Shown piece by piece: positions 809 through 53,792 of a DNA stretch of 64,000 nt. The position numbers were made by a program, and so were the translations under genes. Location of the stretch: assembly GCA_963840035.1 (NCBI GenBank), contig CAWIXE010000002.1, positions 992,099 through 1,056,098 of the forward strand, read 5' to 3'. The DNA comes from a candidate division FCPU426 bacterium. GTDB taxonomy: Bacteria > Oederibacteriota > PGYV01 > Palsa-1178. Position 1 is the first letter of the stretch. Every line of letters begins with the position of its first letter. The notes beneath the pieces were generated by a model, which saw nothing but the letters and a program-made list of their open reading frames with translations, had not been told where the DNA came from and did no database searches.

Positions 809-1469
809 CACAAGTATGATGGCCGCCAATGCAAGAACAAAACTTGGGATAACAAAGTAGAAAATGAAACGCAGCTGCTGCCAGGAATATGAGCACCGCG
901 CCGATGAACATATAAATGTCGGCAAGTATCTTTTCCTTGTTTTTCCTGACGTAAATCACAAAATCAATGGTAAAGAGCACAACAAAAACGCCCAAAGCGC
1001 CCAACAAAATGTACTTGTTTATGGTCATAGAGAACCTGTTAAAGAACTCCACGCCAAACACGCCTGCCAGCACCAGAAATACCGATGCCATGATGAATTT
1101 GGAAAGGAGTGATATGTTTTGCGGGTCTTTGCTGAATTTTTTCGCTATGCTTATATCGATGAAAACCGAGATTGCCAGCGCGAGCGCGCCCAATACCGCG
1201 GGAAGCGGTATGAATTCCTGGCCTTTGACGCCGAATACTATGCCGGCGAGTCCCGCTATCATAAGGATGAATTTAAAGACCGTAAAGAATATCCTGGTAT
1301 CGAGGACCGACTGCTTTAACGCCTCATCCAGGTTCTTCGGCTCAGGCTCCGCGGCCTCGGGCGCTGTTGCCTCGCCTTCCGCGGGCGCCGCCTTTTGCTC
1401 GGCCGCGTCAAGCGGGTTCGGGGTTATATCTTTTGGTCCTTTTTCATTCTCAGCCATGATTGCCTCCAA
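780..1469 (-). CDS. polytopic membrane protein with Ala/Pro/Glu-rich N-terminus
   Basis: 229-aa ORF with about 5 hydrophobic helices after a low-complexity N-terminus; the C-terminal 20 aa (CYPKFCSCIGGHHTCDDVCYQGPA) look out of frame. Confidence 0.45.
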   Translation of the reverse strand: MEAIMAENEKGPKDITPNPLDAAEQKAAPAEGEATAPEAAEPEPKNLDEALKQSVLDTRIFFTVFKFILMIAGLAGIVFGVKGQEFIPLPAVLGALALAISVFIDISIAKKFSKDPQNISLLSKFIMASVFLVLAGVFGVEFFNRFSMTINKYILLGALGVFVVLFTIDFVIYVRKNKEKILADIYMFIGAVLIFLAAAAFHFLLCYPKFCSCIGGHHTCDDVCYQGPA

Positions 1470-1553
1470 GTGTTGTTATATTAAATTAAGTGCTATGTGC
1501 CGTGTGGCGCGTGCTAAGTGGTACGTGGTACGCGGCTTGCGCCGGATACCATC

Positions 1554-4782: not shown

Positions 4783-4856
4783 CATTGACAATTGTTGATT
4801 GACGATTGACAATTAATTACTACAACAATCAAAAAAGCAATTGTCAATTGTCAATT
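4783..4856. promoter_or_regulatory. cluster of ATTGACAATT direct and inverted repeats (candidate operator/hairpin) between PilZ gene stop and TPR-protein gene start
   Basis: 'cattgacaattg', 'gattgacgattgacaatt' and inverted 'caattgtcaattgtcaatt' within 75 bp. Confidence 0.35.
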
Positions 4857-5264
4857 ACTTTCTGGATTTAACAAATAATTCCACACCGACTCAAACTGGT
4901 TCTTGAAATATGCCTCCATGTAACGCCTTTCTTCTTCAGTCATTGCCGCGAATTCGAGGCCTATGCTGTACTGCATGCTTTCTTCGCCAAGGAATATGTG
5001 CCCGTTCCACACTACCTCGCAAACCGCGTGTATTTCCTTTCCGTCAAGGATAAAATCCACCCTTAATATGTCGCCGGGCTGGAACTTGTCATAGGTAAGG
5101 ATGCCTATGCCGCCTTCCGAGATATCATGGCCTTTGGCTTTTACAAACTGTTCATGTTCGACCGCTTCAGCGCCCATCCTTAAGATTTTGTATTTAACAT
5201 CCCTGTTCATCGGAAGCCTTTGCGCCTTTCTTCTCTCTTTTAACATAAGGTCCATAGAATCCAC
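4851..5264 (-). CDS. PilZ domain protein (c-di-GMP receptor-like)
   Basis: 'RRKAQR' (RxxxR) and 'DISEGGIGI' (DxSxxG) PilZ signature motifs. Confidence 0.7.
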   Translation of the reverse strand: MDSMDLMLKERRKAQRLPMNRDVKYKILRMGAEAVEHEQFVKAKGHDISEGGIGILTYDKFQPGDILRVDFILDGKEIHAVCEVVWNGHIFLGEESMQYSIGLEFAAMTEEERRYMEAYFKNQFESVWNYLLNPESN

Positions 5265-7373: not shown

Positions 7374-9512
7374 TTAAAAATTATAGGTTAATGATATTCC
7401 CACATTTTCCATATCCAGCATGGGCGCAAACCCTATCTTATTTTCCTTTGCTATTCTTTCGCTTCTGTTGGTATAAACCGCGTTGTAAACCGCGGTATAG
7501 CCGGGCGCGGAAGCCACATCAGCAAGATATGAAATTCCAAATAAAGCAATACCCGCATAGCGCATAAAATCCTGCGTCGTATTCCCTGTTTTTGTCCCCG
7601 GGTTGGCGAGGTATAACACCGCGCCAAGCGCTTCAACGCCTGCCAGAGTAAACGCCGTTGAATAATTTTCCGCGTAAAAATTACCCGCGCCATGCGCGAG
7701 CAGTCCGGGGCCGGCCGCTATTAAAAACGCGATGCCCGGTTCCTTTTCATCTTTCTTTTCCGTTACCTTATACGGGCTGTTCGGGCAAAGAAGCTGTTTG
7801 TAATATTCCGAATTGACATTATCGGTATGCAGCAGCGAGCCATAAAGGTCTATGCACCTCATGACGGTGTAAACGCCGATTGCGGAATACATAAAACCCT
7901 GCGCGATCTTTTTATTATCATCGCCGGCTTTTCCGTTATAAATCATTCCCACCCCGTATGTAATGCCCGTTAAAATCGGCGTGGCAATAAGCAGCTTAAG
8001 CGCTGTCTCGTTATCGCCCGCCCACCAGTGCCCTGCTCCGGGAATAATTCCGGCGGTAAGCGAGAATACGGAAGTAAGGGCCGGGTCTTTGTATTCCACC
8101 CTTTCCTTTTCAACTTTAAGCTCCATCGTTTTTATCTTATTAAGGTACAGCTCCGCGTTCTCGGTTGCCACAAAAGGAGCCGTGACATAATCAGTCAAAA
8201 GCCCCGCCGCCATCATGCCGGCTCCTGCTGACATAAGCGCGTAATCGGATTTTTCCGTATTTTCAAATTTACCGTTGATTATGGCGCCGGCCGTGATAAG
8301 CATGCCGCCCACTATGGTAAGCGACGAAGACGCGGGCGTCCATGTCTGCAGCCTGCTCCGCGAATAGAAATTACCGAACCCGGCGTAAAGCAGGTTTATG
8401 GGAAAAAGGTCTATGTACGAAAACATATGGGCCGAGAAAGGCGATTTAAACTCCTCATCAACATTCCTCCCCGCGTAAATCTTGTCCATACCCGCCGCGT
8501 GCGACGCCTCAAGTTTTGTGAGGTATGACGCGGTGGAAACATCGCCCGGATTATAAGACAGGTATTTTTTATAGAAAACTATTGCCTGCTCTTTATTGCC
8601 GAAAGAAACATAACAGTTGCCGAGGCGCTGATACGCCTGGTATATGCCCGCGTTGAGTTTTACAACCTCGGAATAGGCGTAGAATGCCTGCTTGTAGTTG
8701 CGCTGAGATTCCAGGGCCAGCCCTTTTTTATAATACTCCTGCGCCTTTGCCTTATTATCGTCAACCGGCGCTATTTTACCCGCTTCTTCAGCCAGTTTTT
8801 TATTTTGTTCTTCAAGTTTTTTCGCGTTTTCCTGCTGTTTTTTCTCGCTCTCGCGCTGCTGCTCTTCAAGCTGTTTCTGAGCGTCCTTCTGCTGCTGTTC
8901 ATACTGGCGCTGCTGTTCCTCGGTGCGTTTCTTCGCGTCCTGCTGCTGTTGTTCATACTGACGCTTCTGTTCCTCAGTACGGTTTTTGGCGTCCTGTTGC
9001 TGCTGTTCGTACTGGCGTTTCTGTTCTTCAGTACGGTTCTTCGCGTCTTTCTGCTGCTGTTCATACTGCCGTTGCTGCTCTTCAGTTCGTTTTTTTGCGT
9101 CCTGTACCTGCTGTTCATTCTTTCGTTTCTGTTCTTCAGCCTGTTTCTTAGCTTCATTTAAGCGCTCTTCATAGCGTTTCTGGCTGTCATCAGCCGCCAT
9201 TTTTGAGTCTTTATTCTTCTGTTCGACAGCCTTTAACTGTTCTTCCTTTTTTGCCTTCAGCGCTTCCTGATTCTTTTTATAGGCTTCCTGCCTTGCTTTA
9301 TAATCAGCAAGCTTCTTATTATAAGCCTGCTGTGTAGCCTGCGCCACTGCCGCCTTTATCTTAGAAACTACAGGCTTTACAGTTTTGACTGGAACCGCTT
9401 TAACCGCAGGTTTAACCGTAGGTATTGCCGTAGGCTTAACCGTAGAAGCAGCCGCTCCAAAGAGCATATTTGCCGAAGCCAAAAGCACAATTAGCAGTAT
9501 ATATTTTCTCAT
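7374..9512 (-). CDS. secreted coiled-coil repeat / TPR protein with C-terminal putative beta-barrel-like domain
   Basis: Signal peptide; 18-aa Q/E/K-rich repeats (DAKNRTEEQKRQYEQQQQ); TPR-like segment; C-terminus ends '...ISLTYNF'. Confidence 0.5.
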   Translation of the reverse strand: MRKYILLIVLLASANMLFGAAASTVKPTAIPTVKPAVKAVPVKTVKPVVSKIKAAVAQATQQAYNKKLADYKARQEAYKKNQEALKAKKEEQLKAVEQKNKDSKMAADDSQKRYEERLNEAKKQAEEQKRKNEQQVQDAKKRTEEQQRQYEQQQKDAKNRTEEQKRQYEQQQQDAKNRTEEQKRQYEQQQQDAKKRTEEQQRQYEQQQKDAQKQLEEQQRESEKKQQENAKKLEEQNKKLAEEAGKIAPVDDNKAKAQEYYKKGLALESQRNYKQAFYAYSEVVKLNAGIYQAYQRLGNCYVSFGNKEQAIVFYKKYLSYNPGDVSTASYLTKLEASHAAGMDKIYAGRNVDEEFKSPFSAHMFSYIDLFPINLLYAGFGNFYSRSRLQTWTPASSSLTIVGGMLITAGAIINGKFENTEKSDYALMSAGAGMMAAGLLTDYVTAPFVATENAELYLNKIKTMELKVEKERVEYKDPALTSVFSLTAGIIPGAGHWWAGDNETALKLLIATPILTGITYGVGMIYNGKAGDDNKKIAQGFMYSAIGVYTVMRCIDLYGSLLHTDNVNSEYYKQLLCPNSPYKVTEKKDEKEPGIAFLIAAGPGLLAHGAGNFYAENYSTAFTLAGVEALGAVLYLANPGTKTGNTTQDFMRYAGIALFGISYLADVASAPGYTAVYNAVYTNRSERIAKENKIGFAPMLDMENVGISLTYNF
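8881..9100. repeat. 54-bp in-frame tandem repeats (about 4 copies) encoding 18-aa coiled-coil units
   Basis: Units beginning 'gcgtcct(t/g)ctgctg...ttcatactg...' recur every 54 bp. Confidence 0.75.
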
Positions 9513-9513
9513 A

Positions 9514-10152
9514 TCAGAACCTCCACGAAAGGCGTGCGGGTATGTAATTAAGCGCCCACGCCGAAGGCCCTAAAGGGATGTACCACAACTTAACCACCTG
9601 TCTAAGGTCTGTGGCTTCAGTAAACATCACCGAGAAAGCGGTTGATAAAACCAGGTTGTCGGTAAGGTTAGCTGAAACTCCTACTTCCACAGAGGGAGAA
9701 AAGAAAGATGAAGAGGTGGTTTCAAGCACCGAGTGTATCTCCCCTGTCTCATTCCTCATAGGATAGGAGGCATTGCCGGAATTAAGTTTTTGTCTTGAGA
9801 CAAAGGAAAAAGAAGGCAGCAGGTTGATAAAGAGGCTGTATCTTTCATCAATTGCGGAAGTCCTGGCCCCGAGGATTACGGCTATATTGGTTATCGCGTC
9901 ATTATATACCGTGTCAGAAAGCGTTGCGGAATCATTATAAAGCATGGGTATGTAAGTAAGCCTGCCGCCGATATAGAAGTTATTAGTGGCGTTGTAAACG
10001 CACTGCCCTTCATATACGGGAAGGTTAATAGCCGCCGAAATAGCGTACCCAATCCCGGCCTCAACGCCGTTATCAAAACTCTTCATTTTAAAAGCCGATA
10101 TAACCGGCACAAACAGCGCCACCAAAACAATCGCTCCAATAAGTCTCTTCAT
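9514..10152 (-). CDS. outer-membrane beta-barrel-type protein
   Basis: Start set at MMKRLIGAIVLVALF signal peptide; alternating hydrophobic pattern, C-terminal '...ARLSWRF'. Confidence 0.5.
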   Translation of the reverse strand: MKRLIGAIVLVALFVPVISAFKMKSFDNGVEAGIGYAISAAINLPVYEGQCVYNATNNFYIGGRLTYIPMLYNDSATLSDTVYNDAITNIAVILGARTSAIDERYSLFINLLPSFSFVSRQKLNSGNASYPMRNETGEIHSVLETTSSSFFSPSVEVGVSANLTDNLVLSTAFSVMFTEATDLRQVVKLWYIPLGPSAWALNYIPARLSWRF

Positions 10153-32658: not shown

Positions 32659-33705
32659 TTATTTTCCCTGCGACATTTTCAACACCGCGCCTGTTGCCGC
32701 GTCTATTTCAATTCCCGGAACACTGCCGGCCCATCCTTCGACAGGCTTGCCGTCTATTTTCCACACATTATCTTTGAGCAATACCGCATATGGTTTAAAT
32801 GAATCTAATGTTGCTTTATCAAATCCGGCTTTTATCCAGGCCTTTTCCGCGATCTCAACAGCCTGCACTTTTGTAATTGCAGCTTTTATACTTACCCCTG
32901 CTGTTTTTGTAGCGCCCCACGAATCAAAAGCCGCTTGTGACTCAAAACCGGGAGCCGCCTGTTCAGTTGAAACCCCTTTATAAAAATTCAAAGCTGAATC
33001 CTCAGTTTTGTCATATTCATAATTAGCCTTTAATTCGACACTTTCCGCTTGCGGTTCCATTAACCCTAGCGATTTTTTTGCCTTATATTCAATATTGACG
33101 CCTGCCGGTTCCGCGGGTGCCGCGGGCTGCGCCTGTGCTTTTGGCGCTGACGCCGGCATAGCCCTTTTAGCGCCGCTGACCGCCGCGCCTGTATCCTTTT
33201 TTGCCTTCGCAATATCAAATACCGCTTCTGCCTTGCCTGACCCTTTTGAAAGGCCTATTTCTTCATTTAATTCAGCCAGCTTATTATCCATTGCTTTTTC
33301 CTTCACCTGCGTCTCAGCCTCAAATTTTGCCGCGTCTTTTACGCCTGCCGCTGATTTATACTCGGGGGTATTTGTAATCTGCCTTATGAAAAAAGCTATC
33401 AGTATTACCCCAAACCCGGTTGCAAAGGCCCTGAAATACGGGTTAAAGACAAAACTTGCCTTCTTTTTGTCCGCCGCATTGAGCTTTTGGTCAAGCTTCG
33501 CGTAAAAGTTTTGCGGCAGTTCCAGCTCTTTTGCCTTTGTATTTTTAAGCTCATTGACGGCCTTTCGCGTAAGTTCAAGTTCCAACGGGCAGTCTTTGCA
33601 TGTTTTTAAATGCGCTTCGAAATCAGACAACGCTTTGCCCGTCAGTTTCTTATCTATATACTCTGATATGCTGTTGTGGAATTCTTTATGATTCATCTTC
33701 ATCAC
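32659..33705 (-). CDS. anti-sigma factor, zf-HC2 zinc finger, single TM, periplasmic C-terminal domain
   Basis: 'HLKTCKDCPLELELTRKA' zinc-finger; TM 'FATGFGVILIAFFIRQI'; overlaps sigma gene stop. Confidence 0.7.
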   Translation of the reverse strand: MMKMNHKEFHNSISEYIDKKLTGKALSDFEAHLKTCKDCPLELELTRKAVNELKNTKAKELELPQNFYAKLDQKLNAADKKKASFVFNPYFRAFATGFGVILIAFFIRQITNTPEYKSAAGVKDAAKFEAETQVKEKAMDNKLAELNEEIGLSKGSGKAEAVFDIAKAKKDTGAAVSGAKRAMPASAPKAQAQPAAPAEPAGVNIEYKAKKSLGLMEPQAESVELKANYEYDKTEDSALNFYKGVSTEQAAPGFESQAAFDSWGATKTAGVSIKAAITKVQAVEIAEKAWIKAGFDKATLDSFKPYAVLLKDNVWKIDGKPVEGWAGSVPGIEIDAATGAVLKMSQGK

Positions 33706-34291
33706 CTATTATCGGCGTCAGCTTGATTTTAAGCGCTTCCCTTGCCCTTGCTATCCTTGACTTCACAGTTCCGAGCGCCACTTTTGTTATTTCCGATATT
33801 TCCTCGTAACTTAACTCCTCTATCTCCCGCAGCACAAGCATTTCCCTTGCCTGCTCCGGGAGTTCGTCCACGGCCTTTCGTACTATCTCTTTTCTGTGGA
33901 ATTTCTCAAACTCCTCGTCTGCGCCCGGCTTTTTATCCGGCAGTTCAAGCTTTATCGAGCCTTCTTCGCCTTCTATGACCTCATCGAGCGAATCATGCTT
34001 AAAAAAGAACCTGCGGCTTTCATATCTCACCCTGTTCTTCCAGGCGTTTATGGCTATCCTGTATACCCAGTTCCCGAACGGACAGTCATGCCCGAACCTG
34101 TTTATGGAGTTATAAGCGTTCACAAAAGCGTCCTGGGCAATATCCTCAGCCGCCTCTTTTGAATTAGAGAGCCGGTAACAAAGATTATATACCTTAGCAG
34201 CGCATGACCTAACCAGCGCGTCAAAAGCATTCCTGTCGCCCTTTTTAGCTTTTAAAACAAGCTCTTTTTCTTCTTTAGTTATCTCAGCCAC
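33686..34291 (-). CDS. ECF-type RNA polymerase sigma factor
   Basis: sigma-70 region 2 and region 4 ('LSYEEISEITKVALGTVKSRIARAR'). Confidence 0.85.
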   Translation of the reverse strand: MAEITKEEKELVLKAKKGDRNAFDALVRSCAAKVYNLCYRLSNSKEAAEDIAQDAFVNAYNSINRFGHDCPFGNWVYRIAINAWKNRVRYESRRFFFKHDSLDEVIEGEEGSIKLELPDKKPGADEEFEKFHRKEIVRKAVDELPEQAREMLVLREIEELSYEEISEITKVALGTVKSRIARAREALKIKLTPIIGDEDES

Positions 34292-35395: not shown

Positions 35396-37470
35396 CTACC
35401 TCACACACACCAGCTTCTCAAACCCCTGCGCCTTTTCCCCTGTCTCTATCTGCGCTGTGACCGAGTATATAAAAGTCCCTGAAGCTATGTGTCTTTTTGC
35501 CCTGTTTTTTCCGTCCCAGTGGAAGTTATTATGGCCGGCTTTCGCGTTTATGCCGCATTCTTCTATGACTATCTCGCCTGATACGGTAAACACCCTCACG
35601 CACACCTCAGCGTCCCTTGAAAGCCAGTAAACTATGTTTGTGTCCTCGGCAAAAGGGTCGTTATAATTGCCTTTTAGTATAAGCTGTAACCGCGGAGTTA
35701 CCGGGGTAACAGTTGCAGACGCCTGCGGTGTCGAAGTTACTGTGCGGGTCGGTGTTGCAGTAATTGTCTTTGTAAATGTCAATGTTGGTGTAATTGTCCT
35801 TGTTATTGTTTTTGTCGGGGTAAATGTCATGGTCTGAGTTTTTGTAATCGTATCTGAAACAGTCATTGTCGGCGTTATGCTGAAAGTTGTTGTCATGGTC
35901 TGCGACGGTGTCAGTGTTTGCGTGACAGAATTAGTCAGGGTGACTGTCCGGGTCGGCAGAAGCGTTTCTGTGTGTGTTACGGTATAACTCGGGGTCTCAG
36001 TCAAGGTATCCCCGGGCGTCTGCGTCTGTGTATAAGTCGGGGTCCTGGTAAAAGTCGGCGAATTCGGACTTGTTGCGGTCCTTGTCGCTGTTCTTGTTCC
36101 GGTCGGAGTGCGCGTTGGCGTTACTGTAGCGGTAGAAGTGGATACGAAATCCGTCATCCCTGACCCGCCCGGATAGCCATATCCATCCTGGTCGTCAAAA
36201 CCGTACACGTTGACGCCTATTGGAAGCGGTGAAATAATGTTGTGGCTCCCGACCCCGACGCTTACGCGCGTGGCCGAAAAACCGCTGGATGCAATAGAAA
36301 TAAAACTACCCGCAGGTATAACCGAACCGTCAACTGATAATAGCCCGGCTGCGGCGTCAGGGGCAGTGATATTTAAATAATTCGCAGAGAAACCGGATTG
36401 TGGCGTCCCAACAGTGTAATTATCCAGATACTGCTCGACAGGTTCTATAATCATCATGAACGGGTCGCCGGTTGTGGAATCAAACATGGTGCTGTTTGAA
36501 TACTGCATAACAAGCACCCGGTTGTTCGAAGTTATCATTCCCGCCCCGCTGATTAACGCCTCAAAAAACGCGCCTTTGACCATAGGCGACGGGTTTAAAA
36601 GAGCCCCGTCAAGGTACAGGTATGTGCCGTTTTGTGACGCCATAATTCTGTAGGTATCGGTCCCTGACCTTCCCGCAAGCGGAACGATAATAAATTGTTT
36701 CCCCCAGCTCGATGTCGGGGCAGCTGTTCCACAAGGTAATTGCAGTAGTTGGATGACACCGGGATATCCGCGCAGATATGGCCCCCGAAAACAGCAATAC
36801 GCCTGTCAGAATCCACGGTTGTTCCGGTTAAATCCTCACTGCCGGGATTGTCATCTCGCAGTAAATAGACCTGCCCTTTATTCAGAATTACGTCATACGG
36901 GACATTCTGGATCCTGCCGCCTATCGTGCAGTTAAGCCTGATTGTCACCGTGGTGTTATCTTCGACAGCCACTACGGCAAATTCACTTCCTACCGGGTTA
37001 TTTACGCCGCCGTTATTGAATGAAAGAATTATATGGTTGGTGCCAAGCGCTTCCACAGGAAGGCCCAAAAACGCGTCTGTAATGACAGGGCTGTGCGAAT
37101 AACCGTATACGGTTACCGGATCAGCCGAGGTTACATGTATACCCCTCACCGAAACAACGTCGCTGTCAAAAACGTCGCTGTTCCATGGCAGGTCCACATA
37201 GGTTATAGCGCCGGCAGTCACATTTACATTTTTGTTAAACGTCAGGACCGGCGATAAGGATATGGTCATGTTCACGGTTGCTGTCGTATTGGTCTGTGAA
37301 GTGATGAGTATTTGCTTTGCAGGCGATATTCCCGAACTGTAAGGCGAATAATATGACCCCGGGATGCAAATCCAGAAATCAGTCCCTTCGCTGGTGGGTG
37401 AAGAAAATGCATAAAACGGCATTATGAAAAGATATGCCATTACTGTCAAAACCTTAATTTTTAATTTCAT
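35396..37470 (-). pseudogene. frameshifted gene for secreted IgGFc-binding-like domain protein with Thr-rich linker and T9SS-type C-terminal domain
   Basis: ORFs 36595..37470 and 35396..36643 are one gene: the '...NYCNYLVEQLP' frame continues as 'PTSSWGKQFIIVPLAGRSGTDTYRIMASQNG...' in the next frame; shift at G4 run 36717..36720. Confidence 0.6.
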
Positions 37471-37558
37471 TCCCGCTCCAGTAAGGATGGACTTATTTCT
37501 CTATAAATATATCGGAAATATGGGAGAAACCTTGAATTGAATTAATGTTTTAAACACC

Positions 37559-40212: not shown

Positions 40213-40896
40213 CTAATTCAATCCTTCTTTATACCTGTCCTCAACTTTAACATTCATTATATCCGTGACTTTTGTCAATACCGCGTCAAATTCCGCCTCT
40301 TTTCCCTCTTCGCAGATAAGGTAAGCCCTGAGCGCCACAGAATCGCTTACCATGGCGTTTTTTACAGGCAGGTAATAGCCCGCCTCTACAGGCCCGGGAT
40401 TATAACCGGTGGTAAAAAACTCCACTACCAGGTTTGTTTCAAGTCCGCCTTCGAGCCTTAACCCAACTGTAAGGGCCAGGTTCATGGTTGTATAGTCCAT
40501 GTAATACTTATACACTTTATCTATGTTATAAACAATTTTTTCAAAGATATACTTGATCTCAGCCGGGGTATATTTGTGGAAAAACTCGTCATCTACCTCG
40601 ATAATCTCCTCATCAACTTCATCCATGGCCTGCGATACCGGGTCCGCAGGCGCGTGTTCGTGCTCAGGACCGTGCTCATGGCCGCATTCCTCGCATTCAT
40701 GAGTATCATTTTCCATGGATAAAAACTTCTTGATATCTGCCATCTCCGGGTCATTTACAGATTTTAAAGCGTCCCTTAAGTCCTCAAGCTCCAGGCATGT
40801 TATGCTGCCCTGCTCCACATGGCCGTTTAAGGTAAACTGATACAGAAAATCAGGTATCATTGAGGCAAGATCCAGGTTAAAATTAATTTTTTGCAT
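40213..40896 (-). CDS. hypothetical acidic protein with His/Cys/Glu-rich motif
   Basis: Start set at MQKINFNLD; 'HECEECGHEHGPEHEHAP' metal-binding-like stretch. Confidence 0.5.
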   Translation of the reverse strand: MQKINFNLDLASMIPDFLYQFTLNGHVEQGSITCLELEDLRDALKSVNDPEMADIKKFLSMENDTHECEECGHEHGPEHEHAPADPVSQAMDEVDEEIIEVDDEFFHKYTPAEIKYIFEKIVYNIDKVYKYYMDYTTMNLALTVGLRLEGGLETNLVVEFFTTGYNPGPVEAGYYLPVKNAMVSDSVALRAYLICEEGKEAEFDAVLTKVTDIMNVKVEDRYKEGLN

Positions 40897-42011
40897 TATG
40901 CTTATTCTCCGCTTCCATTTTGAGGTAGGCCTCGACATATACATCCAGGTCGCCGTCTAAAACTTTATCCACATCGCTGCGCTCCAAGTCGGTGCGCAGG
41001 TCTTTTATCATTTTATAAGGGTGCAAAACATAAGAGCGTATCTGGCTGCCCCACGCAATCTCGCGCTTATCACCGGCTATCGACGCAATGTTCTCCTTAT
41101 GCTGTTCTTCTTTTATGGCTACCAGTTTGGATTTTAGGACTTTCATGGCTATTGCCCTGTTTTTCATCTGGGAACGGTCTACCTGACAGGCTACAATCAC
41201 TCCGGTGGGTATATGGGTTATCCTGATGGCTGATTCGGTCTTGTTCACGTGCTGTCCGCCTGCGCCTGATGACCTGTATGTATCGACTTTCAGGTCTTCC
41301 GGCCTGATATCCACTTCCACGTCTTCTTCTATCTCGGGAATGACCTCCAGCGAGGCAAATGAGGTATGCCTGCGCTTGTTGGAATCAAATGGCGATATCC
41401 TGACAAGCCTGTGAACGCCCTTTTCCGGCCGGAAACAACCATAGGCGTAGTCGCCTATGACTTCAAAGGTCACATTTTTAATGCCAGCCTCGTCGCCGGG
41501 CATGGAATCAGTGACATTTACCTCAAAACCTTTCTTTTCACACCACATTACATACATCCGCAGCAGCATCTGCGCCCAGTCACAGGACTCTGTCCCGCCC
41601 GCGCCGGCATGCAGGGTTACTATGGCGTTGCTTCTGTCATATTTTCCGGAAAACATCTGGTTGAATTCTTCGTTATCCACAGCCTTCTTTAATTCCGCAA
41701 ATTTCTTCTGAAGTTCAGCCTCAAGCGACGCGTCTTTCTCGCTTTCAAGGAGTTCAAGCGTCACTTCAACCTCTTCAATTAAAGTGTTTATTTTATTTGT
41801 TTTTGTTATATCGTTATTGATGGCTTTTAACTTTAACTGTACTTCAGCCGCAGCCTTATTGTTGCTCCAGAAATCAGGCTCGGCAGTCATTGTCTCCAGC
41901 TTTATTTTTTCAACTTTCTTGTCTTTAACGTCAAAGATACACCTCTATCTTCGATGCTCTCTGCTTAATATCAGACAATGCTGACCTTATTTCCTTTATT
42001 TCCAGCGCCAT
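40883..42011 (-). CDS. prfB: peptide chain release factor 2, with programmed +1 ribosomal frameshift
   Basis: Frame 0 'MALEIKEIRSALSDIKQRASKIEVYL' ends at CTT TGA C (41936..41930) preceded by SD-like GAGGTG; +1 frame continues DVKDKK...; 'SPF' and 'GGQ' motifs present. Confidence 0.9.
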
Positions 42012-45019: not shown

Positions 45020-45457
45020 ATGGAAAAATCAGTCATAACAGTAAACATATTCGGGAATGAATACACGATCAAAGGCGTGGCGCGTCCCGACTATATTATC
45101 TCCCTTGCCAACTACCTCAATAATAAAATGACCGAAGTACAGGAAGCAACGGGCCTAAAGGACGCGAAGAAAATAGCTATTTTAGCAGCCATTAACATAT
45201 CAGACGAGTTGTTCGAAGCTAAACGCGCAATGAAAGAAGGGTTTGTCCCTAATGACCAGCTTGCGGCCATAAGGAATAAGGTAGAGGGATTAATCGCCAC
45301 CATAGACCGTGAACTTCCATCGGGAATTGATATATCATCTGAAGTTCCGGCTCAGGGCGCGGGAAATACAGCTTCCCAGGCGCCTGCCGCTGACGAAGCC
45401 ATTAAAGAAGACATCACACCCCCGGATAATCCGTCCCTACCGCCAAAAACCGAATAA
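45020..45457 (+). CDS. zapA: cell division protein ZapA
   Basis: 'ITVNIFGNEYTIKG...AKKIAILAAINISDELFEAK' ZapA signature. Confidence 0.8.
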   Translation: MEKSVITVNIFGNEYTIKGVARPDYIISLANYLNNKMTEVQEATGLKDAKKIAILAAINISDELFEAKRAMKEGFVPNDQLAAIRNKVEGLIATIDRELPSGIDISSEVPAQGAGNTASQAPAADEAIKEDITPPDNPSLPPKTE

Positions 45458-45468
45458 GCTCCCGGATT

Positions 45469-46659
45469 CTAATAAGTTCCGTTGCTGTCCGTTTTAACAA
45501 AATATATGTTATATGAATTTTCGCCTGAAGGATTCTTTACCCATCCTGTTACCGCAATTCCGAAGTCCTTAGAGAGCGCGATACCTCCGAGATAATCGTC
45601 CATTTTGGTCCCGAAATTCCGGCTCCACAAAGGCGTGCCTGAACTGTCAGTCTTTATAATATACAGGTCGCTGCTGCCCTGGGTAAAGGATTCGCTAGTG
45701 GAACCTATTACATAGCCGCCTTTACCGTCGCTAATCACAGACTCACCGAATTCATTCAGCATGTCGCCGTACGTCCTGGCCCATACACAATCCCCTTCGG
45801 CGTCGGTTTTAACCAAGTATATGTCATTATTTTCAGCGGTTGAAACATATGTAGTGCCGCATATCAAATAACCGCGGTCGTCAGTTTGTATTATCTTGGC
45901 AGCGCTGTCATCTAAATTTCCGCCATACGCTCTCGTCCACACCGTATTTCCGCTTAAATCAAATTTTACGATTGCGGCATCAGTTTTTTCTTTTACATTT
46001 TTTACGGCTTCGCCTGAGACAACATATCCCCCGTCAATGCCCGCAATTATGCATTTTGCCTTGAATGAATGAAAACCAGCATCCGTCACTTTCGTCCACA
46101 CGCTGTTTCCGTCCTGATCTATCTTTATCAGCATGCATGAATACCGATTTGATTTAAGGGGGTCATGCGCTGAACCCGCAATTATAAAACCTCCGTCAGA
46201 AGTTTCCATGATGGCAGACGCCTCTTCATTCTCCGCGGTACCGTATGTCCTCAGGAACTTTATATTCCCTTTTTTGTCCGTTCTGACAGCTAAAAAATCA
46301 GCAAGGCCGGCGCCGTATGATGTAGTTGCCCCGGCCATGACAAAATCACCGTTTGAAGCGATTACTACAGAATAGAACCGATCATCCCCAGCTCCGCCAA
46401 AATAATTGTCCCATTGCTTTTTTCCATGACTGTCAAGTTTAAGCAAGTATGCGTCCACATAACCGGCGCCAGCGGCAGTGGACATGCCGGCAATGACATA
46501 ACCGTTATCATCAGTTGCTTTTATATCCCGCGCGCTGTTATATTTTACGCCGGTAATAACAGCGGGTTTTATACGCGAAGGCGGCAATACTGACAGCACG
46601 GCGGCAAATATTCCGGATAAAATAATTACAATAAATATTATAACTGCCATTTTTTTCAT
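45469..46659 (-). CDS. membrane-anchored beta-propeller repeat protein (SBBP-like repeats)
   Basis: N-terminal anchor; six to seven repeats of the pattern 'YGG..D...S...T.DGGY...G.T.S.G.G..D..L.K.D..GN..W'. Confidence 0.5.
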   Translation of the reverse strand: MKKMAVIIFIVIILSGIFAAVLSVLPPSRIKPAVITGVKYNSARDIKATDDNGYVIAGMSTAAGAGYVDAYLLKLDSHGKKQWDNYFGGAGDDRFYSVVIASNGDFVMAGATTSYGAGLADFLAVRTDKKGNIKFLRTYGTAENEEASAIMETSDGGFIIAGSAHDPLKSNRYSCMLIKIDQDGNSVWTKVTDAGFHSFKAKCIIAGIDGGYVVSGEAVKNVKEKTDAAIVKFDLSGNTVWTRAYGGNLDDSAAKIIQTDDRGYLICGTTYVSTAENNDIYLVKTDAEGDCVWARTYGDMLNEFGESVISDGKGGYVIGSTSESFTQGSSDLYIIKTDSSGTPLWSRNFGTKMDDYLGGIALSKDFGIAVTGWVKNPSGENSYNIYFVKTDSNGTY

Positions 46660-46674
46660 ATTATTCTCCGATTG

Positions 46675-46974
46675 TTAAAGGATTTTACTGGCTTTATTAT
46701 TGGATTTATAGACAAACACGAGCACTTCCGCTATGAGTTTGTATAGTTCGGGCGGTATTTCCTGGCCTAAATCAAGCTTCGAAAGCACTTCAATAAGGTC
46801 CGGGTCTTCGTGCATCGGTATGTTATGTTTCCTGGCGAGCTCGATTATCTTATCCGCCATTACCCCTTTACCTTTGGCTACTATTTTAGGGGCCGAATCC
46901 GTATTTTTATCATAATGTATGGCAAGCGCCTGTTTCTTTTTCTGTGGAAGGTTTGGGCTCAGCTTTTCATCCAT
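46675..46974 (-). CDS. FlhB C-terminal-domain paralog (YlqH/FhlB family)
   Basis: 'ALAIHYDKNTDSAPKIVAKGKG...IPPELYKLIAEVLVFVYK' aligns with the FlhB C-terminal domain in this window ('IAVALRYKEGVDGAPTVVAKG...IPNELFQAVAEILAFVYQ') but lacks NPTH. Confidence 0.75.
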   Translation of the reverse strand: MDEKLSPNLPQKKKQALAIHYDKNTDSAPKIVAKGKGVMADKIIELARKHNIPMHEDPDLIEVLSKLDLGQEIPPELYKLIAEVLVFVYKSNNKASKIL

Positions 46975-46976
46975 TA

Positions 46977-49616
46977 TTATGCCTGAAGGTTGATCCTGCC
47001 GACATTTACATAACCTTCACCCGAGGAAGGCGAAGAACCGGCTTTTTCGCTGTCTATTAGTATCTGAAATGCCTTCATATTAAAATTAACAGTATTTAAG
47101 CCTTCCATGAAGTCGTTTTTGCCCCTCATAAGCGCCTGCTTTGCCTTTTCGCTTGCTATGTTTACCGTGCATTCGACGTCGTTCTTATGGATCGTCATGC
47201 TTATCTTCACGCTGCCCAGGTTGGATGTATTTAGCATGAAGACAATATTTACAGGCATTGATTTTTCAAAACTGTCTTTTACTCCGCCTTTCCTGAACCA
47301 CACCTGGACTTCACCGTTAAAGAGTTTGTTGCTTAAGAATACGGGAAGCTGCGCGTATATCATCTCAAATGCAGCGGGTTTCTGGTTTATAAACTGCAGC
47401 GCGTTCATGTTTGTGAGTATGTCCGTTGCAGCGTCCTTTATCTGGCGTATTGATTCCTTGTGGGCGGGGCTTAGCTTGTATGAATCCATATTTTCGGTGA
47501 CCGAGCCCAGCTTAATCAGCGCCGACTTAAGGTTGTCTTTCATGCCCGCAATGTCCGTTGCGAGCCTTGCGGCCGCCTGATTGTTATCCTTTACTATTGA
47601 CTCATTTTTCAGGACAGCGTCCTTTAGTTTGTTCTCAATATTTAGCCCGCTTGATTCCATAAAACTCTTCAACTGCTGTTCTATAACCTGCTGTTTTAAG
47701 TTAGTATCCTCCGGGTTTATGACTACCTGGCGGATGGCGGTTTTTACGGCTTCAGCAGCGTTATACAATGCCGCGATATAAGGGGCATCCTCTTTTGGCA
47801 GGGCGTTTGACTGTTTAAGGCCGTCAAAACGGTTGATGGCATTGGATAGTTTCTCCAGTCCCTGGTTTAATTTCATGTCATCCTTAAAATATTTTCCCAT
47901 GGTATCTATGAATTTGTCATTGCCTGTCGATATATCCCTGGATTTAAGAAACGTCAGCGACTCCACCGTCGATTCGACATCAAATTCCGCGTTGGCAGCC
48001 GTGATCTTTAAAGCCTGGCTTTCCGCAACCCGGGGTTTAATTACGCTGAGCAGCTCGCTTTTCGCCATAAAATCTTTCATAACTGACTGAAATTTTAAAT
48101 AATCTTTGGGCGCTATCATTGTTTCTTCAGGATTATTCGTTATGCCTGTTTTTTGGATCAACTGGGTTATGTTGTCCGCCGCCTTATTTATCTCAGACCT
48201 GAAATTGTTTATCTGGCCCTGGGTTATAACCGATTTATCAACTGATTTATCAAGCCCTTCGCTTAACATCGTTATCCCGACATTTAACTTTGTTATGGCG
48301 GCGGCTATATCCTTAACGTTCTGGGGGAGGTTTGTTTCTCCGGGAGTTAACACATTCCTTTTTAATTCGGCGAATGAATCCCTGATTCCGGTTATTATCT
48401 GTTTCGCCTGCTGGTTTACCGCGTCAAAAATATCCGCTTTCTGATTTATGCCGTCAGGAGCCTTAAGGGCCAAAGCCTGGCTCCCAAGAAGTTTATTTAC
48501 AAAAACGTCCCTTAAGGCATTCGCGGCAGTATTTTCAGAAGCCTGCCCCGTTGACGGGGATGTTATAAACGCCTCCATGTCCGCCTTTAAGCTGCCAAAG
48601 GTTATTTCCAGGTCATTGTTAGGAGACATTGTCATCCTGATGTTTGCTGAATTTATAACGGCAGGCTGCCCGGTGGATACGGCCGCGATCATAACTTTAG
48701 CGTCAGCTGACGATATAAGCCCGTTCTTGACGGAATCATAAACAGCGTTTTCCATAATCTGCTTTGACGCGTTTTTAATTGTTACTGTTACACCGCCCTG
48801 ATTTGCCGCCACATTTATATCCCTGACCTGGCTGGAAACGCCGGCCAGCGTATTTATGATGTTTGTAAATTTTATCGCGGTGCCGGTCTTATCTCCGGAT
48901 GGCTGCGCAAGTGAGACGGCCTGCGCGGGCTGTTTTAGAGATTCCGGCGTATTTGCCGCAGCGGTTTCAAGCGCCTGAAAAGGCTGCGATATCTGAGCGG
49001 CTTCAATGGCGCTTTTGGCTGCATTTGCGGCTTCGGCGCTGAGTTTTATCATCCCTGAAACAAATACTTCTTTGGCCACGGGAAGGGTCTCAATATTCAA
49101 CGCCCTGATATCTATACCTTTTGCGTCCATGTAGCGTATCAGGCTCTGGTTAATATCCGCCATGTTCTGGGCTGTCACAGGCAGGTGATAGTCCATAAGT
49201 TTCTGGGCGATAAAAATATTTTGTTCATTGACAGGCACTTTGATATTTGTCAGCGTCTGCATAATCTGGCTTAATGAAACCTGCTGTCCCTGGAGTTGCG
49301 GGATATCCGCGCCTTTTCCTATATCAGCGGCAGGATTGGGTATTAGTTTCATCATGATCTGATTATTTATCTGCGATACTTCCACATTAATTATGTCGCC
49401 CTTCTGGACGCCCATACCCTGCGGAAGCTGAGATATTATGTTATACCCTTTAAAGTTTATAATGGCTTTATTTTCTCCGGGAATAATGTCAACCACCCTG
49501 CCTTTTAGGGTATCTCCGGGGTTTAATGTGGCGATAAAATCCCTTATGTCCTTATCAGCCGCGTTCAAAAGCTGGAATAAATTTTGATTTACGCTTTGTA
49601 CCGACATTTTTTCCAC
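46977..49616 (-). CDS. large FliK-like (hook-length control domain) protein
   Basis: 879 aa, Gln/Asn/Ala-rich; C-terminal region resembling the FliK Flg_hook domain; flagellar-locus context. Confidence 0.4.
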   Translation of the reverse strand: MEKMSVQSVNQNLFQLLNAADKDIRDFIATLNPGDTLKGRVVDIIPGENKAIINFKGYNIISQLPQGMGVQKGDIINVEVSQINNQIMMKLIPNPAADIGKGADIPQLQGQQVSLSQIMQTLTNIKVPVNEQNIFIAQKLMDYHLPVTAQNMADINQSLIRYMDAKGIDIRALNIETLPVAKEVFVSGMIKLSAEAANAAKSAIEAAQISQPFQALETAAANTPESLKQPAQAVSLAQPSGDKTGTAIKFTNIINTLAGVSSQVRDINVAANQGGVTVTIKNASKQIMENAVYDSVKNGLISSADAKVMIAAVSTGQPAVINSANIRMTMSPNNDLEITFGSLKADMEAFITSPSTGQASENTAANALRDVFVNKLLGSQALALKAPDGINQKADIFDAVNQQAKQIITGIRDSFAELKRNVLTPGETNLPQNVKDIAAAITKLNVGITMLSEGLDKSVDKSVITQGQINNFRSEINKAADNITQLIQKTGITNNPEETMIAPKDYLKFQSVMKDFMAKSELLSVIKPRVAESQALKITAANAEFDVESTVESLTFLKSRDISTGNDKFIDTMGKYFKDDMKLNQGLEKLSNAINRFDGLKQSNALPKEDAPYIAALYNAAEAVKTAIRQVVINPEDTNLKQQVIEQQLKSFMESSGLNIENKLKDAVLKNESIVKDNNQAAARLATDIAGMKDNLKSALIKLGSVTENMDSYKLSPAHKESIRQIKDAATDILTNMNALQFINQKPAAFEMIYAQLPVFLSNKLFNGEVQVWFRKGGVKDSFEKSMPVNIVFMLNTSNLGSVKISMTIHKNDVECTVNIASEKAKQALMRGKNDFMEGLNTVNFNMKAFQILIDSEKAGSSPSSGEGYVNVGRINLQA

Positions 49617-49638
49617 CTTTGTTCTTTATTTATATAAT

Positions 49639-49665
49639 ATATCGGAAATCCGCTGAAAATCTTTA
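49639..49665 (-). promoter_or_regulatory. sigma-28 (FliA)-type promoter TAAA-N15-TCCGATAT
   Basis: On minus strand: TAAA (49665..49662), 15-nt spacer, TCCGATAT (49646..49639); about 25 nt upstream of the FliK-like gene start. Confidence 0.45.
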
Positions 49666-49672
49666 GCGCAAA

Positions 49673-50278
49673 TTAACGCTTAATATTGCGTATTAACTGT
49701 ATTTCGCCCCTTGTAAGGCCGGTTACTTTGGCAATTTCATCCACGGATAGGCCGTTATTTAAAAGGGTATTTATATGCTGGTATTTATCCCTTCCTGCAG
49801 CCTTAAAATCCTTATCCATTACAGGCGCTTCAGCGTTATCTTCCAGGCCGTTAACAACAAGCCTGGACACGGCCGGCGTGTCCTTAACATCCTGTGTGTT
49901 ATCGCCTTCCAGGCTGTCTGATTTTTCGGCAGCGGGTATCTCGGATGGTGTATCATGTATGGCCTCTTTATATTCAGCCTGCCTTCTCAGCTGGTTTCTT
50001 TCCATGAGGTACTTCATCTCATTTATGCGCTCGGTAGCCGCTTTCATGGTCTGCTCAACAGATTTTTTCACTTCCTCCATCGCTATAATCCTTGTATTCG
50101 CGATCACGCTAAGCTCATCAATAAGCGATTTGAGATTTTGCTGGAATTCTATGAGGTCAATGCCTTCAAGTTCGGACATGGGGCCTGATTCGCGGGGTTT
50201 ATTAAGTTTGATAAGAAGAAAAACAACAACAGCTATGAGAATTAAATTTAGGACAACCAGTGTTATGAACATATCCAT
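49673..50278 (-). CDS. hypothetical membrane-anchored protein with C-terminal helix-turn-helix
   Basis: N-terminal TM 'FITLVVLNLILIAVVVFLLI'; C-terminal 'LSVDEIAKVTGLTRGEIQLI'. Confidence 0.45.
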   Translation of the reverse strand: MDMFITLVVLNLILIAVVVFLLIKLNKPRESGPMSELEGIDLIEFQQNLKSLIDELSVIANTRIIAMEEVKKSVEQTMKAATERINEMKYLMERNQLRRQAEYKEAIHDTPSEIPAAEKSDSLEGDNTQDVKDTPAVSRLVVNGLEDNAEAPVMDKDFKAAGRDKYQHINTLLNNGLSVDEIAKVTGLTRGEIQLIRNIKR

Positions 50279-50281
50279 CCT

Positions 50282-50602
50282 TTACGCTTTAATGTCGATT
50301 ATGTAGCCTTCGCCGGGGGATTTAACATCAGTTTCCGGTTTCCGGGAAACGTCAGCCTGCGCCTTTTTTAGGGGCTGTTTTTCTTTCTTAAGCTGTTTTC
50401 CGCGCCGGCCTTCTTCGCTTAAGGCTTTTGACGCGTGTTCTTCCTCGGCTTTCTGGGCCTGGGTAAGTTTAATATTCGCCTGCTCATTTATCTGCATGGC
50501 ATTTTGAGATTGGGCCAGTTGGCCCTGGTTTTGGTTTAAATTATGGAACTTATCCGCGGTGTTTAATGCGCTTATAGCCACCTGTACGTCATGCAGTCTC
50601 AT
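50282..50602 (-). CDS. hypothetical small Gln/Lys-rich protein in flagellar locus
   Basis: 106 aa, no recognised motif; operonic spacing with flanking genes. Confidence 0.35.
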   Translation of the reverse strand: MRLHDVQVAISALNTADKFHNLNQNQGQLAQSQNAMQINEQANIKLTQAQKAEEEHASKALSEEGRRGKQLKKEKQPLKKAQADVSRKPETDVKSPGEGYIIDIKA

Positions 50603-52297: not shown

Positions 52298-53068
52298 TCA
52301 CCTCTCCCGTTCCAGTTTCCTGAAACCGCTCCTCAGTTTTATAATCAGTTTTGTATGTATCTGACACACCCTAGATTCAGACACATTCATCGCCATCCCT
52401 ATTTCCTTAAGCGTCAAACCATCCCAGTAATACATCTCAAGCATGGCTCTTTCTTCGTTATCAAACTTTTCTATGATTTCAGCGAGGTGGCTGACAGCTT
52501 CTTTTTTCTCAAATTTCTCGAGTGTGCTGTCACTTTCGCCCATTATGTCTTCAAAATAGAAAGAATCCCCATCGCTGCTAAGGATTTCACTGTCCATAGA
52601 TATAAGAGAAATCCCTTTCATTTTATCGAGTATAACATAAAACTCTTCCTTTGTCATCCTCATTTCTTTCATAATTTCCTCATCATTTGCGGGCCTTCCA
52701 TACTCCGATTCAAAGCGTATATAGGCCTGTTCCAGCTTTTTTATCTGTTCCCTGACGTTCTTTGGAAGCAGATCCTCCTTGCGCAGCGCGTCAATTATGG
52801 CGCCCCTAACCCTTTTTGACGCGAATGTCTCGAATTTGACGTTTTTTTCAAGGTCAAATTTGTCAATGGATTCCATGAGGCCTATTATGCCTTCAATATA
52901 AAGGTCTTCCTTGTCGTTTGAGCGTACTTCCTGCGGAAGGTGTGAGGCTATCCTGTCAGTCATGTATTTAACAAGGGGCATGTAGTTTTTTACAAGCAAT
53001 TCCCTGTCTTTATCATTTTTATTCCTGACGTACCTTTTCCACAACTCGTCCGCATTGATATTGTCCAT
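52298..53068 (-). CDS. fliA: RNA polymerase sigma factor for flagellar operon (sigma-28)
   Basis: sigma-70 regions 2, 3, 4; 'LTLKEIGMAMNVSESRVCQIHTKLIIKLR' region-4 HTH. Confidence 0.9.
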   Translation of the reverse strand: MDNINADELWKRYVRNKNDKDRELLVKNYMPLVKYMTDRIASHLPQEVRSNDKEDLYIEGIIGLMESIDKFDLEKNVKFETFASKRVRGAIIDALRKEDLLPKNVREQIKKLEQAYIRFESEYGRPANDEEIMKEMRMTKEEFYVILDKMKGISLISMDSEILSSDGDSFYFEDIMGESDSTLEKFEKKEAVSHLAEIIEKFDNEERAMLEMYYWDGLTLKEIGMAMNVSESRVCQIHTKLIIKLRSGFRKLERER

Positions 53069-53073
53069 AGCCC

Positions 53074-53427
53074 CTATTTTCCGTAAATATCATCAAATAA
53101 ATCGTCATCCACTTTGGTAACAATGTCTAATTTCTTTCCTTTTATCGGATCGCTTTTCTTTAAACCCGCCGGTTTTTCCGCCGGCATGTTTTTTTTATCA
53201 GCTGTAAATTCTTTAACGGCAGTTTCCGGGCCGTTTTTACCGGCGAAAACCAGCTTTAAGGAATAGAAAACAGCGATAAAAACAATTACTCCTGTTATTA
53301 CCGCGGATAAGACTATTTTAATGATATCCGCGTCATTTACATTTATAAGCCCGCCGATAAAAAAGCCCAATACCCCGGCTAAGATAGCGGCTTCAGCGTA
53401 TGTTTTATTATCAGTTTGTCCGCTCAT
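53074..53427 (-). CDS. hypothetical small membrane protein
   Basis: 117 aa, two hydrophobic helices; overlaps PilZ gene by 4 nt. Confidence 0.4.
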   Translation of the reverse strand: MSGQTDNKTYAEAAILAGVLGFFIGGLINVNDADIIKIVLSAVITGVIVFIAVFYSLKLVFAGKNGPETAVKEFTADKKNMPAEKPAGLKKSDPIKGKKLDIVTKVDDDLFDDIYGK

Positions 53428-53792
53428 TTTTTCTTGTTGGGTTTGGCTTTTACGCCTTCCCTGAGTATGTATTTGATCAGCCTGTCCTGGTCCGGGCCTT
53501 CCAGGTCCTTGAATTTGATAACAGCCTCAAACTGGCCGCCCGATATTTCCTTCATGCCGATTATGGTTCCTGCTGTATCTATCGGCTTTTCCCCGGGAAG
53601 CTTTACCGCTATTTCAAGCAGCGTCCCTTTTTCTATCTTCTTAGGGACAAACATGGTCATGCCGTTCCCGCTTATAGTGTCGGTAAACGATGTATTCGGG
53701 GCTATAGCGGTGCTTGCGAACCTTTCTATTATTACCTTATACTCGATCTCAACCCTTTTCTGAAGCCTTACGTGATCCCTTCTTTCAGCCAT
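53424..53792 (-). CDS. PilZ domain protein in flagellar operon (YcgR/MotI-like c-di-GMP receptor)
   Basis: 'RRDHVR' (RxxxR) and 'DTISGNG' (DxSxxG). Confidence 0.7.
   Translation of the reverse strand: MAERRDHVRLQKRVEIEYKVIIERFASTAIAPNTSFTDTISGNGMTMFVPKKIEKGTLLEIAVKLPGEKPIDTAGTIIGMKEISGGQFEAVIKFKDLEGPDQDRLIKYILREGVKAKPNKKK

Follow-up and report, generated by a model that had tools for sequence, protein, structure and literature searches.

The window analysed here, a stretch of 64,000 nucleotides from a candidate division FCPU426 bacterium, carries a long flagellar gene array that is followed on the same strand by a FliK-like gene and a gene for a fragment of FlhB, and this arrangement raises the question of which promoter serves this pair. 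The original prediction had proposed a sigma-28 (FliA, SigD) promoter directly in front of the pair, with fliA lying 3 kb upstream. Domain searches (Pfam, NCBIfam) agree with the gene identities given there, the first gene (fliK2) encoding a Flg_hook, FliK-like protein and the second (flhX) a paralog of the FlhB C-terminus, and fliA is found 2.6-3.4 kb upstream. From comparison of related loci, it is very probable that the motif is a functional FliA-class promoter, PfliK2, for fliK2, flhX and, probably, a third gene encoding a beta-propeller protein.

According to Pfam and NCBIfam matches, the minus-strand array runs through fliM, fliN, fliO, fliP, fliQ, fliR, flhB, flhA, flhF, flhG, a PilZ-domain gene, a 117-aa ORF and fliA. 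After fliA it continues with a gene for a FapA-domain protein, a 106-aa ORF, a DUF2802 (fipA-like) gene, the promoter motif, fliK2, flhX and the beta-propeller gene, the latter facing a convergent zapA. The features that matter for the promoter are collected in Table 1. Two small PilZ-domain proteins are encoded in the window (53424-53792 and 4851-5264, minus strand); the first of these genes, between flhG and fliA, holds its position throughout the clade and is a candidate for conveying c-di-GMP signals to the motor or to the placement of flagella. The 117-aa ORF before fliA (53074-53427) and the 106-aa ORF between the FapA-domain gene and fipA (50282-50602), both on the minus strand, have no Pfam or NCBIfam match, and their position is also conserved across the clade.

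Table 1. The fliK2 promoter region and its gene neighbourhood (positions in the window).
Feature	Position	Strand	Remarks
fliA	52298..53068	minus	TIGR02479, 213.9 bits (cut-off 189.6)
fipA-like gene, TM helix + DUF2802	49673..50278	minus	Pfam DUF2802, 37.0 bits (cut-off 33.5)
-35 element GCTAAAG	49661..49667	minus	Core TAAA 49665-49662; -36 to -30 by the geometry of the P. aeruginosa fliC promoter
Spacer, 14 nt, between TAAAG and TCCGATAT	49647..49660	minus
-10 element TCCGATAT	49639..49646	minus	Positions -15 to -8; consensus GCCGATAA/T
Predicted transcription start, A	49631	minus	Inferred from the -15..-8 register of the P. aeruginosa sigma-28 open complex
Ribosome-binding site and fliK2 start codon	49605..49620	minus	AAAGGTGG at 49620-49613; ATG at 49607-49605
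fliK2, 876-aa FliK paralog	46977..49607	minus	Pfam PF02120 Flg_hook, 36.7 bits (cut-off 29.8), residues 787-855
flhX, 99-aa paralog of the FlhB C-terminal fragment	46675..46974	minus	Pfam Bac_export_2, 75.5 bits (cut-off 24.4)
Membrane-anchored SBBP/beta-propeller repeat protein	45469..46659	minus	NCBIfam NF047494, partial match; N-terminus hydrophobic
Weak terminator-like hairpin + T run at operon end, facing convergent zapA	45450..45465	minus

The gap between the fipA-like gene and fliK2 measures 65 nt and contains the whole motif, oriented toward fliK2. In minus-strand order the sequence reads TAA TTTGC GCTAAAG ATTTTCAGCGGATT TCCGATAT ATTATATAAATAAAGAAC AAAGGTGG AAAA ATG, where TAA (49675-49673) is the stop codon of the fipA-like gene, the last of the upstream fliA array, and ends 5 nt before the -35 box. 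The sigma-28/SigD consensus of E. coli and B. subtilis is TAAA-N15-GCCGATAA/T. The proposed TAAA-N15-box reading fits this consensus, with 15 nt between TAAA and TCCGATAT (14 nt if counted from TAAAG), and the -10 element departs from it at its first base alone (T instead of G at -15). The range first given for the motif, 49636-49665, takes in both core elements. The fliK2 ATG follows the end of the -10 box by 31 nt on the same strand and the predicted start by 24 nt, so that the distance of about 25 nt in the original prediction was a fair one; the 5' untranslated region would thus be 24 nt long. This start codon matches the equivalent methionine of the homologs and is preceded by a good ribosome-binding site. 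The alternative GTG start that the ORF tool gives at 49616 is unneeded, the homologs beginning at the methionine equivalent to ATG 49607.

In order to compare this region among relatives, 12 genome and 20 metagenome loci were gathered, and removal of duplicates and of loci cut by contig ends left 17 distinct loci, window included. All of them carry TAAAG or TCAAG-N14-NCCGATAT directly 5' of the fliK2 ortholog, the general form being T(A/C)AAG, exactly 14 nt, and NCCGA(T/A)(A/T)AT. T, A, A and G are invariant in the -35 box, its first A being present in 14 of the 17 loci and replaced by C in 3, and CCGA is invariant in the -10 box, with CCGATAT in 15/17. Position -15 is either T or A, and never G, in the fliK2 promoters of the clade. 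Spacing of the boxes is constant (17/17 loci), and the ATG follows the -10 box at a variable distance of 27 to 74 nt. The boxes contain 1.4-2.1 bit of information per position, as compared to 0.01-0.45 bit at matrix positions 10-15, in the central spacer; the spacer is thus invariant in length and unconserved in its central part, and its 3' part is T-rich. A total of 24 full-length relatives of FliK2 were detectable, in metagenome-assembled genomes labelled Goldbacteria/Goldiibacteriota, FCPU426 or 'uncultured Spirochaetia', and the FliM homologs point to the same clade. The FliK2 proteins are merely 30-47% identical, yet the boxes are near-invariant, indicating that selection acts on the motif itself.

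Rearranged loci are informative as to which gene the motif belongs to. In one relative (L036) a decayed IS200/IS605-like transposase remnant with several stop codons (9400-9900) lies between fipA and fliK2, which are 630 nt apart, and the sigma-28 motif is still found beside fliK2. In another (L024 5031-12236, same as L025) the fliK2-flhX pair follows flgG-flgA-flgH-flgI-flgJ and a 124-aa ORF rather than the fliA array, and the promoter is kept. Retention of the motif beside fliK2 in both arrangements indicates that it belongs to the downstream gene. Together with the near-invariant boxes and fixed spacing, this behaviour bears out the sigma-28 promoter first proposed from a single sequence. 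The L- and P-ring genes of L024/L025 show that a diderm-type flagellum occurs in the clade. Degenerate boxes (CAAAAT ... TCTCATAT, with shorter spacing) precede an intact fliK2 in L009 (5894-7557) and L030; the FliK2 protein encoded there has 518 aa, keeping the N-terminal 170 and the C-terminal 335 residues and lacking the helical middle.

A different explanation is that fliK2 and flhX are expressed essentially by read-through from the flhA...fliA...fipA array, with middle-class timing, and that the motif adds little. The genes from fliM through the beta-propeller gene share one strand and are separated by short gaps, the fipA stop codon is 5 nt from the -35 box with no terminator-like site on the minus strand in the gap, and in P. 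putida the effect of FliA on the fliK2-flhX promoter (Ppp4328) was merely 2-3 fold in one study (Jimenez-Fernandez et al., PMC5026340). As the space from fipA to the -35 box has no place for a terminator, upstream transcripts probably also reach fliK2-flhX, and the promoter would not be strictly required for fliK2 expression in the window genome. However, selection on the motif, as judged from near-invariant boxes next to proteins of such low identity, and its persistence where an insertion remnant separates fliK2 from fipA or where the pair follows a different operon, are not expected of a motif that adds little. Read-through as essentially the sole source of expression is therefore regarded as possible but rather unlikely. 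Read-through and promoter can act together, and this explanation modifies rather than replaces the assignment of the motif as a FliA-class promoter.

The reader expected for such a promoter is encoded in the same array. [quoted passage not shown] The site in the window has the same register, with CTAAAG at -35..-30 and xCCGATAx at -15..-8, although the gene served is here neither a filament nor a chemotaxis gene. Alignment of the window FliA with the P. aeruginosa FliA chain 9wsf, whose numbering is offset by five from that of the paper, showed that the residues reading the -35 element are kept (S224/Q228 corresponding to S232/Q236); other correspondences are D66 to D72, Y76 to F82 and R97 to K103. 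The window thus differs from P. aeruginosa both at -15 (T, not G) and in having K103 where the latter has R97. The presence of K103 together with the consistent lack of G at -15 (49646) may reflect co-variation of reader and site, or may be coincidental.

Reading of the boxes by something other than FliA, be it another sigma factor, a repressor or activator, or through a 5' RNA element, was also considered and is judged highly improbable. An ECF sigma factor is encoded in the window (33686-34291), and a weak TTTTCA-N17-TATATA, seen by eye, overlaps the site. However, both boxes fit the sigma-28 consensus base for base and at sigma-28 spacing, neither the ECF nor the sigma-70 consensus fits, and the overlapping sigma-70-like hexamers correspond to unconserved spacer in the orthologs; no sigma-70-like site was reported on the minus strand in the fipA-fliK2 gap. 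An RNA element is further disfavoured by the location of the boxes upstream of the predicted transcript, and a search of Rfam gave no match at E<=1 between 44 and 54 kb of the window.

The strength of the site was evaluated by counting its occurrences and by scoring with a weight matrix built from ten orthologous sites, the window site being left out. Exact TAAA-N16-CCGATAT occurs once in the window (0.05 expected), and 9 times if one mismatch is allowed (1.8 expected). The fliK2 site scored 28.5 bits by the leave-one-out matrix, as compared to a maximum of 19.0 bits among 100 random windows matched to it in first-order composition; the runner-up scores in the window were 23.8 bits (37502-37536) and then 10.1 bits. 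Across approximately 370 kb of related loci, the fliK2-promoter motif was the sole match above 18 bits in any locus. Although 5 of 100 shuffled windows hold one exact match somewhere and CCGATA by itself is common (41 copies in the window), a chance match in AT-rich intergenic DNA has next to no probability given the position of the site in a 65-nt gap, its correct orientation and its score far beyond random, and it is refuted by the comparative data, the motif being at the same place with invariant spacing in 16 other distinct loci.

The runner-up is itself a sigma-28-type site, TCAAG-N14-TCCGATAT on the minus strand, intergenic, correctly oriented and scoring above every random window. It stands 38 nt before the ATG of a gene for a signal-peptide protein with IgGFc_binding and C-terminal FlgD_ig domains, which is a possible FliA target. 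The Pfam domain is split over two overlapping minus-strand ORFs, 36595-37470 and 35396-36643 (model positions 1-127 and 147-297), pointing to either a frameshift or an error in sequencing; no relatives of this gene were found in metagenomes. A programmed +1 frameshift is a known feature of prfB, the gene for release factor 2, and the prfB gene of the window (40883-42010, minus strand) has the site CTT TGA C at 41930-41936, with an internal Shine-Dalgarno-like AGAGGTG ahead of it.

With respect to the genes served, Flg_hook is the only Pfam match of FliK2 and occupies approximately its C-terminal 70 aa. In an AF2 model, of moderate confidence with a mean pLDDT of 68.7, the protein has a five-stranded N-terminal barrel (residues 33-88), a long helical middle and a C-terminal alpha/beta domain. 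A fold search with the whole protein gave no significant match (best E 0.12), and the model of the C-terminal domain has local matches only, to the PscP switch domain (5cuk) and the FliK C-terminal domain (2rrl). In two close relatives, L016 and L017 (the latter on the same contig as L001), with FliM 91% and 87% identical to that of the window, a canonical fliK encoding 753-803 aa with Flg_hook lies between fliJ and flgD, a region that is past the window end here. No significant BLASTP similarity was found between FliK2 and the canonical FliK of these relatives. The presence of a canonical fliK at its usual place in close relatives suggests that the promoter-linked fliK2 is a second paralog. 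Consensus sigma-28 motifs also occur inside fliJ of both relatives, at the same codon position: TAAAG-N14-GGCCGATAT in the 3' part of the L017 gene (1765-1791, plus strand) and GCCGATAG in that of L016 (approximately 1457-1488, plus strand). They lie roughly 330-360 nt before the canonical fliK and could be internal promoters or simply coding sequence that is conserved; the corresponding region falls outside the window.

The product of flhX is devoid of both the membrane part and the NPTH cleavage site of FlhB, and scores 110.7 bits against TIGR00789 (flhB_rel), under the curated cut-off of 117.35. It aligns to residues 272-350 of the window FlhB with 43% identity, just past the NPTH autocleavage site (267-270), and has no NPTH of its own; it thus mimics the processed C-terminal fragment of FlhB. 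The beta-propeller gene, which starts 15 nt after flhX, is probably the third gene of the operon; among the 12 genome loci, 9 have a gene of this type 3' of flhX.

The fipA-like gene next to the promoter encodes a protein with an N-terminal hydrophobic helix and the residues G176-x15-E192-x2-L195, at the spacing of the FipA invariant residues, which in Vibrio are G110, E126 and L129 (PMC11620751). FipA/FlrD of Vibrio, Shewanella and Pseudomonas share with it the transmembrane helix and DUF2802, the three invariant residues and the place at the end of the flhF-flhG-fliA operon. FipA has been described from gamma-proteobacteria as a partner of FlhF; the similar protein of the window occurs in Goldbacteria.

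Work on P. putida is the only literature found on the fliK2-flhX pair. In this species fliK2 (PP_4328) and flhX (PP_4329) form a two-gene operon, a FliA-type motif is conserved 5' of the pair across Pseudomonas and FliA is reported to be essential for expression; distal genes of the flhA-fliA operon show FliA-dependent expression on top of read-through, and fliK2 is called uncharacterised (Leal-Morales et al., bioRxiv 10.1101/2021.08.29.457346). The pair in KT2440 has the same gene order, a FliK-type protein with Flg_hook only and then the FlhB C-terminal paralog, and likewise adjoins the flhA-flhF-fleN-fliA...flrD/fipA operon, with a FliA-type promoter kept within the genus. Several differences are apparent. 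The Ppp4328 boxes, TCAAG ... GCCGTTTA (PMC5026340), match the consensus much more weakly than the Goldbacteria boxes, and the P. putida pair is convergent to the fliA operon while that of the window is downstream on the same strand. Also, the window FliK2 is about twice the length of the P. putida protein, with which it shares the Flg_hook domain, and the operon of the candidate phylum has the additional beta-propeller gene. The description of these genes as uncharacterised in the original prediction needs refining for the pair as such, which has a name and a demonstrated FliA dependence in P. putida (bioRxiv 10.1101/2021.08.29.457346; PMC5026340).

The H. pylori FlhX (HP1575) corresponds to a stand-alone processed C-terminal subdomain of FlhB and partly replaces the FlhB C-terminal domain, according to the text cited (bioRxiv 10.1101/2021.08.29.457346), which describes for it neither a fliK2 partner nor a sigma-28 promoter; the window flhX likewise begins right after the NPTH site. 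In FlhX loci of other phyla (L013-L015 and L018-L020, including a Nitrospirota and a Nitrospinaceae metagenome-assembled genome), a gene for a Flg_hook protein of 394-530 aa adjoins flhX in 5 of 6 cases, and a DUF2802 or DUF6115 gene stands directly before fliK2-flhX in 2 of 6 (L014, from Nitrospinaceae, and L020). These Flg_hook proteins share with the window FliK2 an N-terminal G-D/E-T-L/I-K-x-x-V motif, as read by eye. None of the six loci has a sigma-28 motif 5' of fliK2, indicating that the promoter is not universal to the pair. A copy of TCCGATAT inside the DUF6115 gene of L020 was discarded as a promoter; no -35 box accompanies it, and the sequence there reads as coding.

In the mechanism proposed, region 4.2 of the FliA holoenzyme would bind CTAAAG at -35 and regions 2 and 3 would bind TCCGATAT at -15 to -8, with DNA opening at the A of CCGATA and initiation close to A49631. 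Transcription would run through fliK2, flhX and probably the beta-propeller gene, and would end at the convergent zapA. As fliA belongs to the same long run of genes on one strand, those at its distal end can first be expressed weakly by read-through, with an increase through FliA to follow; where the pair is no longer next to the fliA array, the promoter would be its own means of expression. The promoter is predicted to depend on FliA in vivo. Late timing of fliK2-flhX, as implied by the placement of these genes in the late flagellar regulon, would in addition need an anti-sigma checkpoint; the window contains no FlgM checkpoint, flagellin or other classical late genes.

A broader reading is that FliA control of the pair is old, has been selected for and is common to Pseudomonas and Goldbacteria, and that FliK2 and FlhX act after hook completion. 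Synthesis of FlhX and its switch-domain partner would then await the release of sigma-28, and the two would modulate the export gate or lock it in the late-substrate state, and the fipA-like neighbours in the window, the Nitrospinaceae contig and a high-GC contig would tie the pair to FlhF-dependent flagellar placement. This reading is speculative and is regarded as rather improbable.

The promoter assigned here belongs to a known class and serves a known gene pair in a new phylum, and no new mechanism is revealed by it. With it, two flagellar genes of a candidate phylum known from metagenomes only receive a regulatory assignment that has good support, and the weight matrix supplied is specific for the clade and can be used to find the remainder of its FliA regulon. 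The coupling of fliK2-flhX to sigma-28, before documented only in Pseudomonas, extends to a lineage very far removed, in which the promoter comes close to the consensus. A late role of the pair in flagellar assembly thereby gains in likelihood, and it would be reasonable to study the two genes by genetics in a tractable species.
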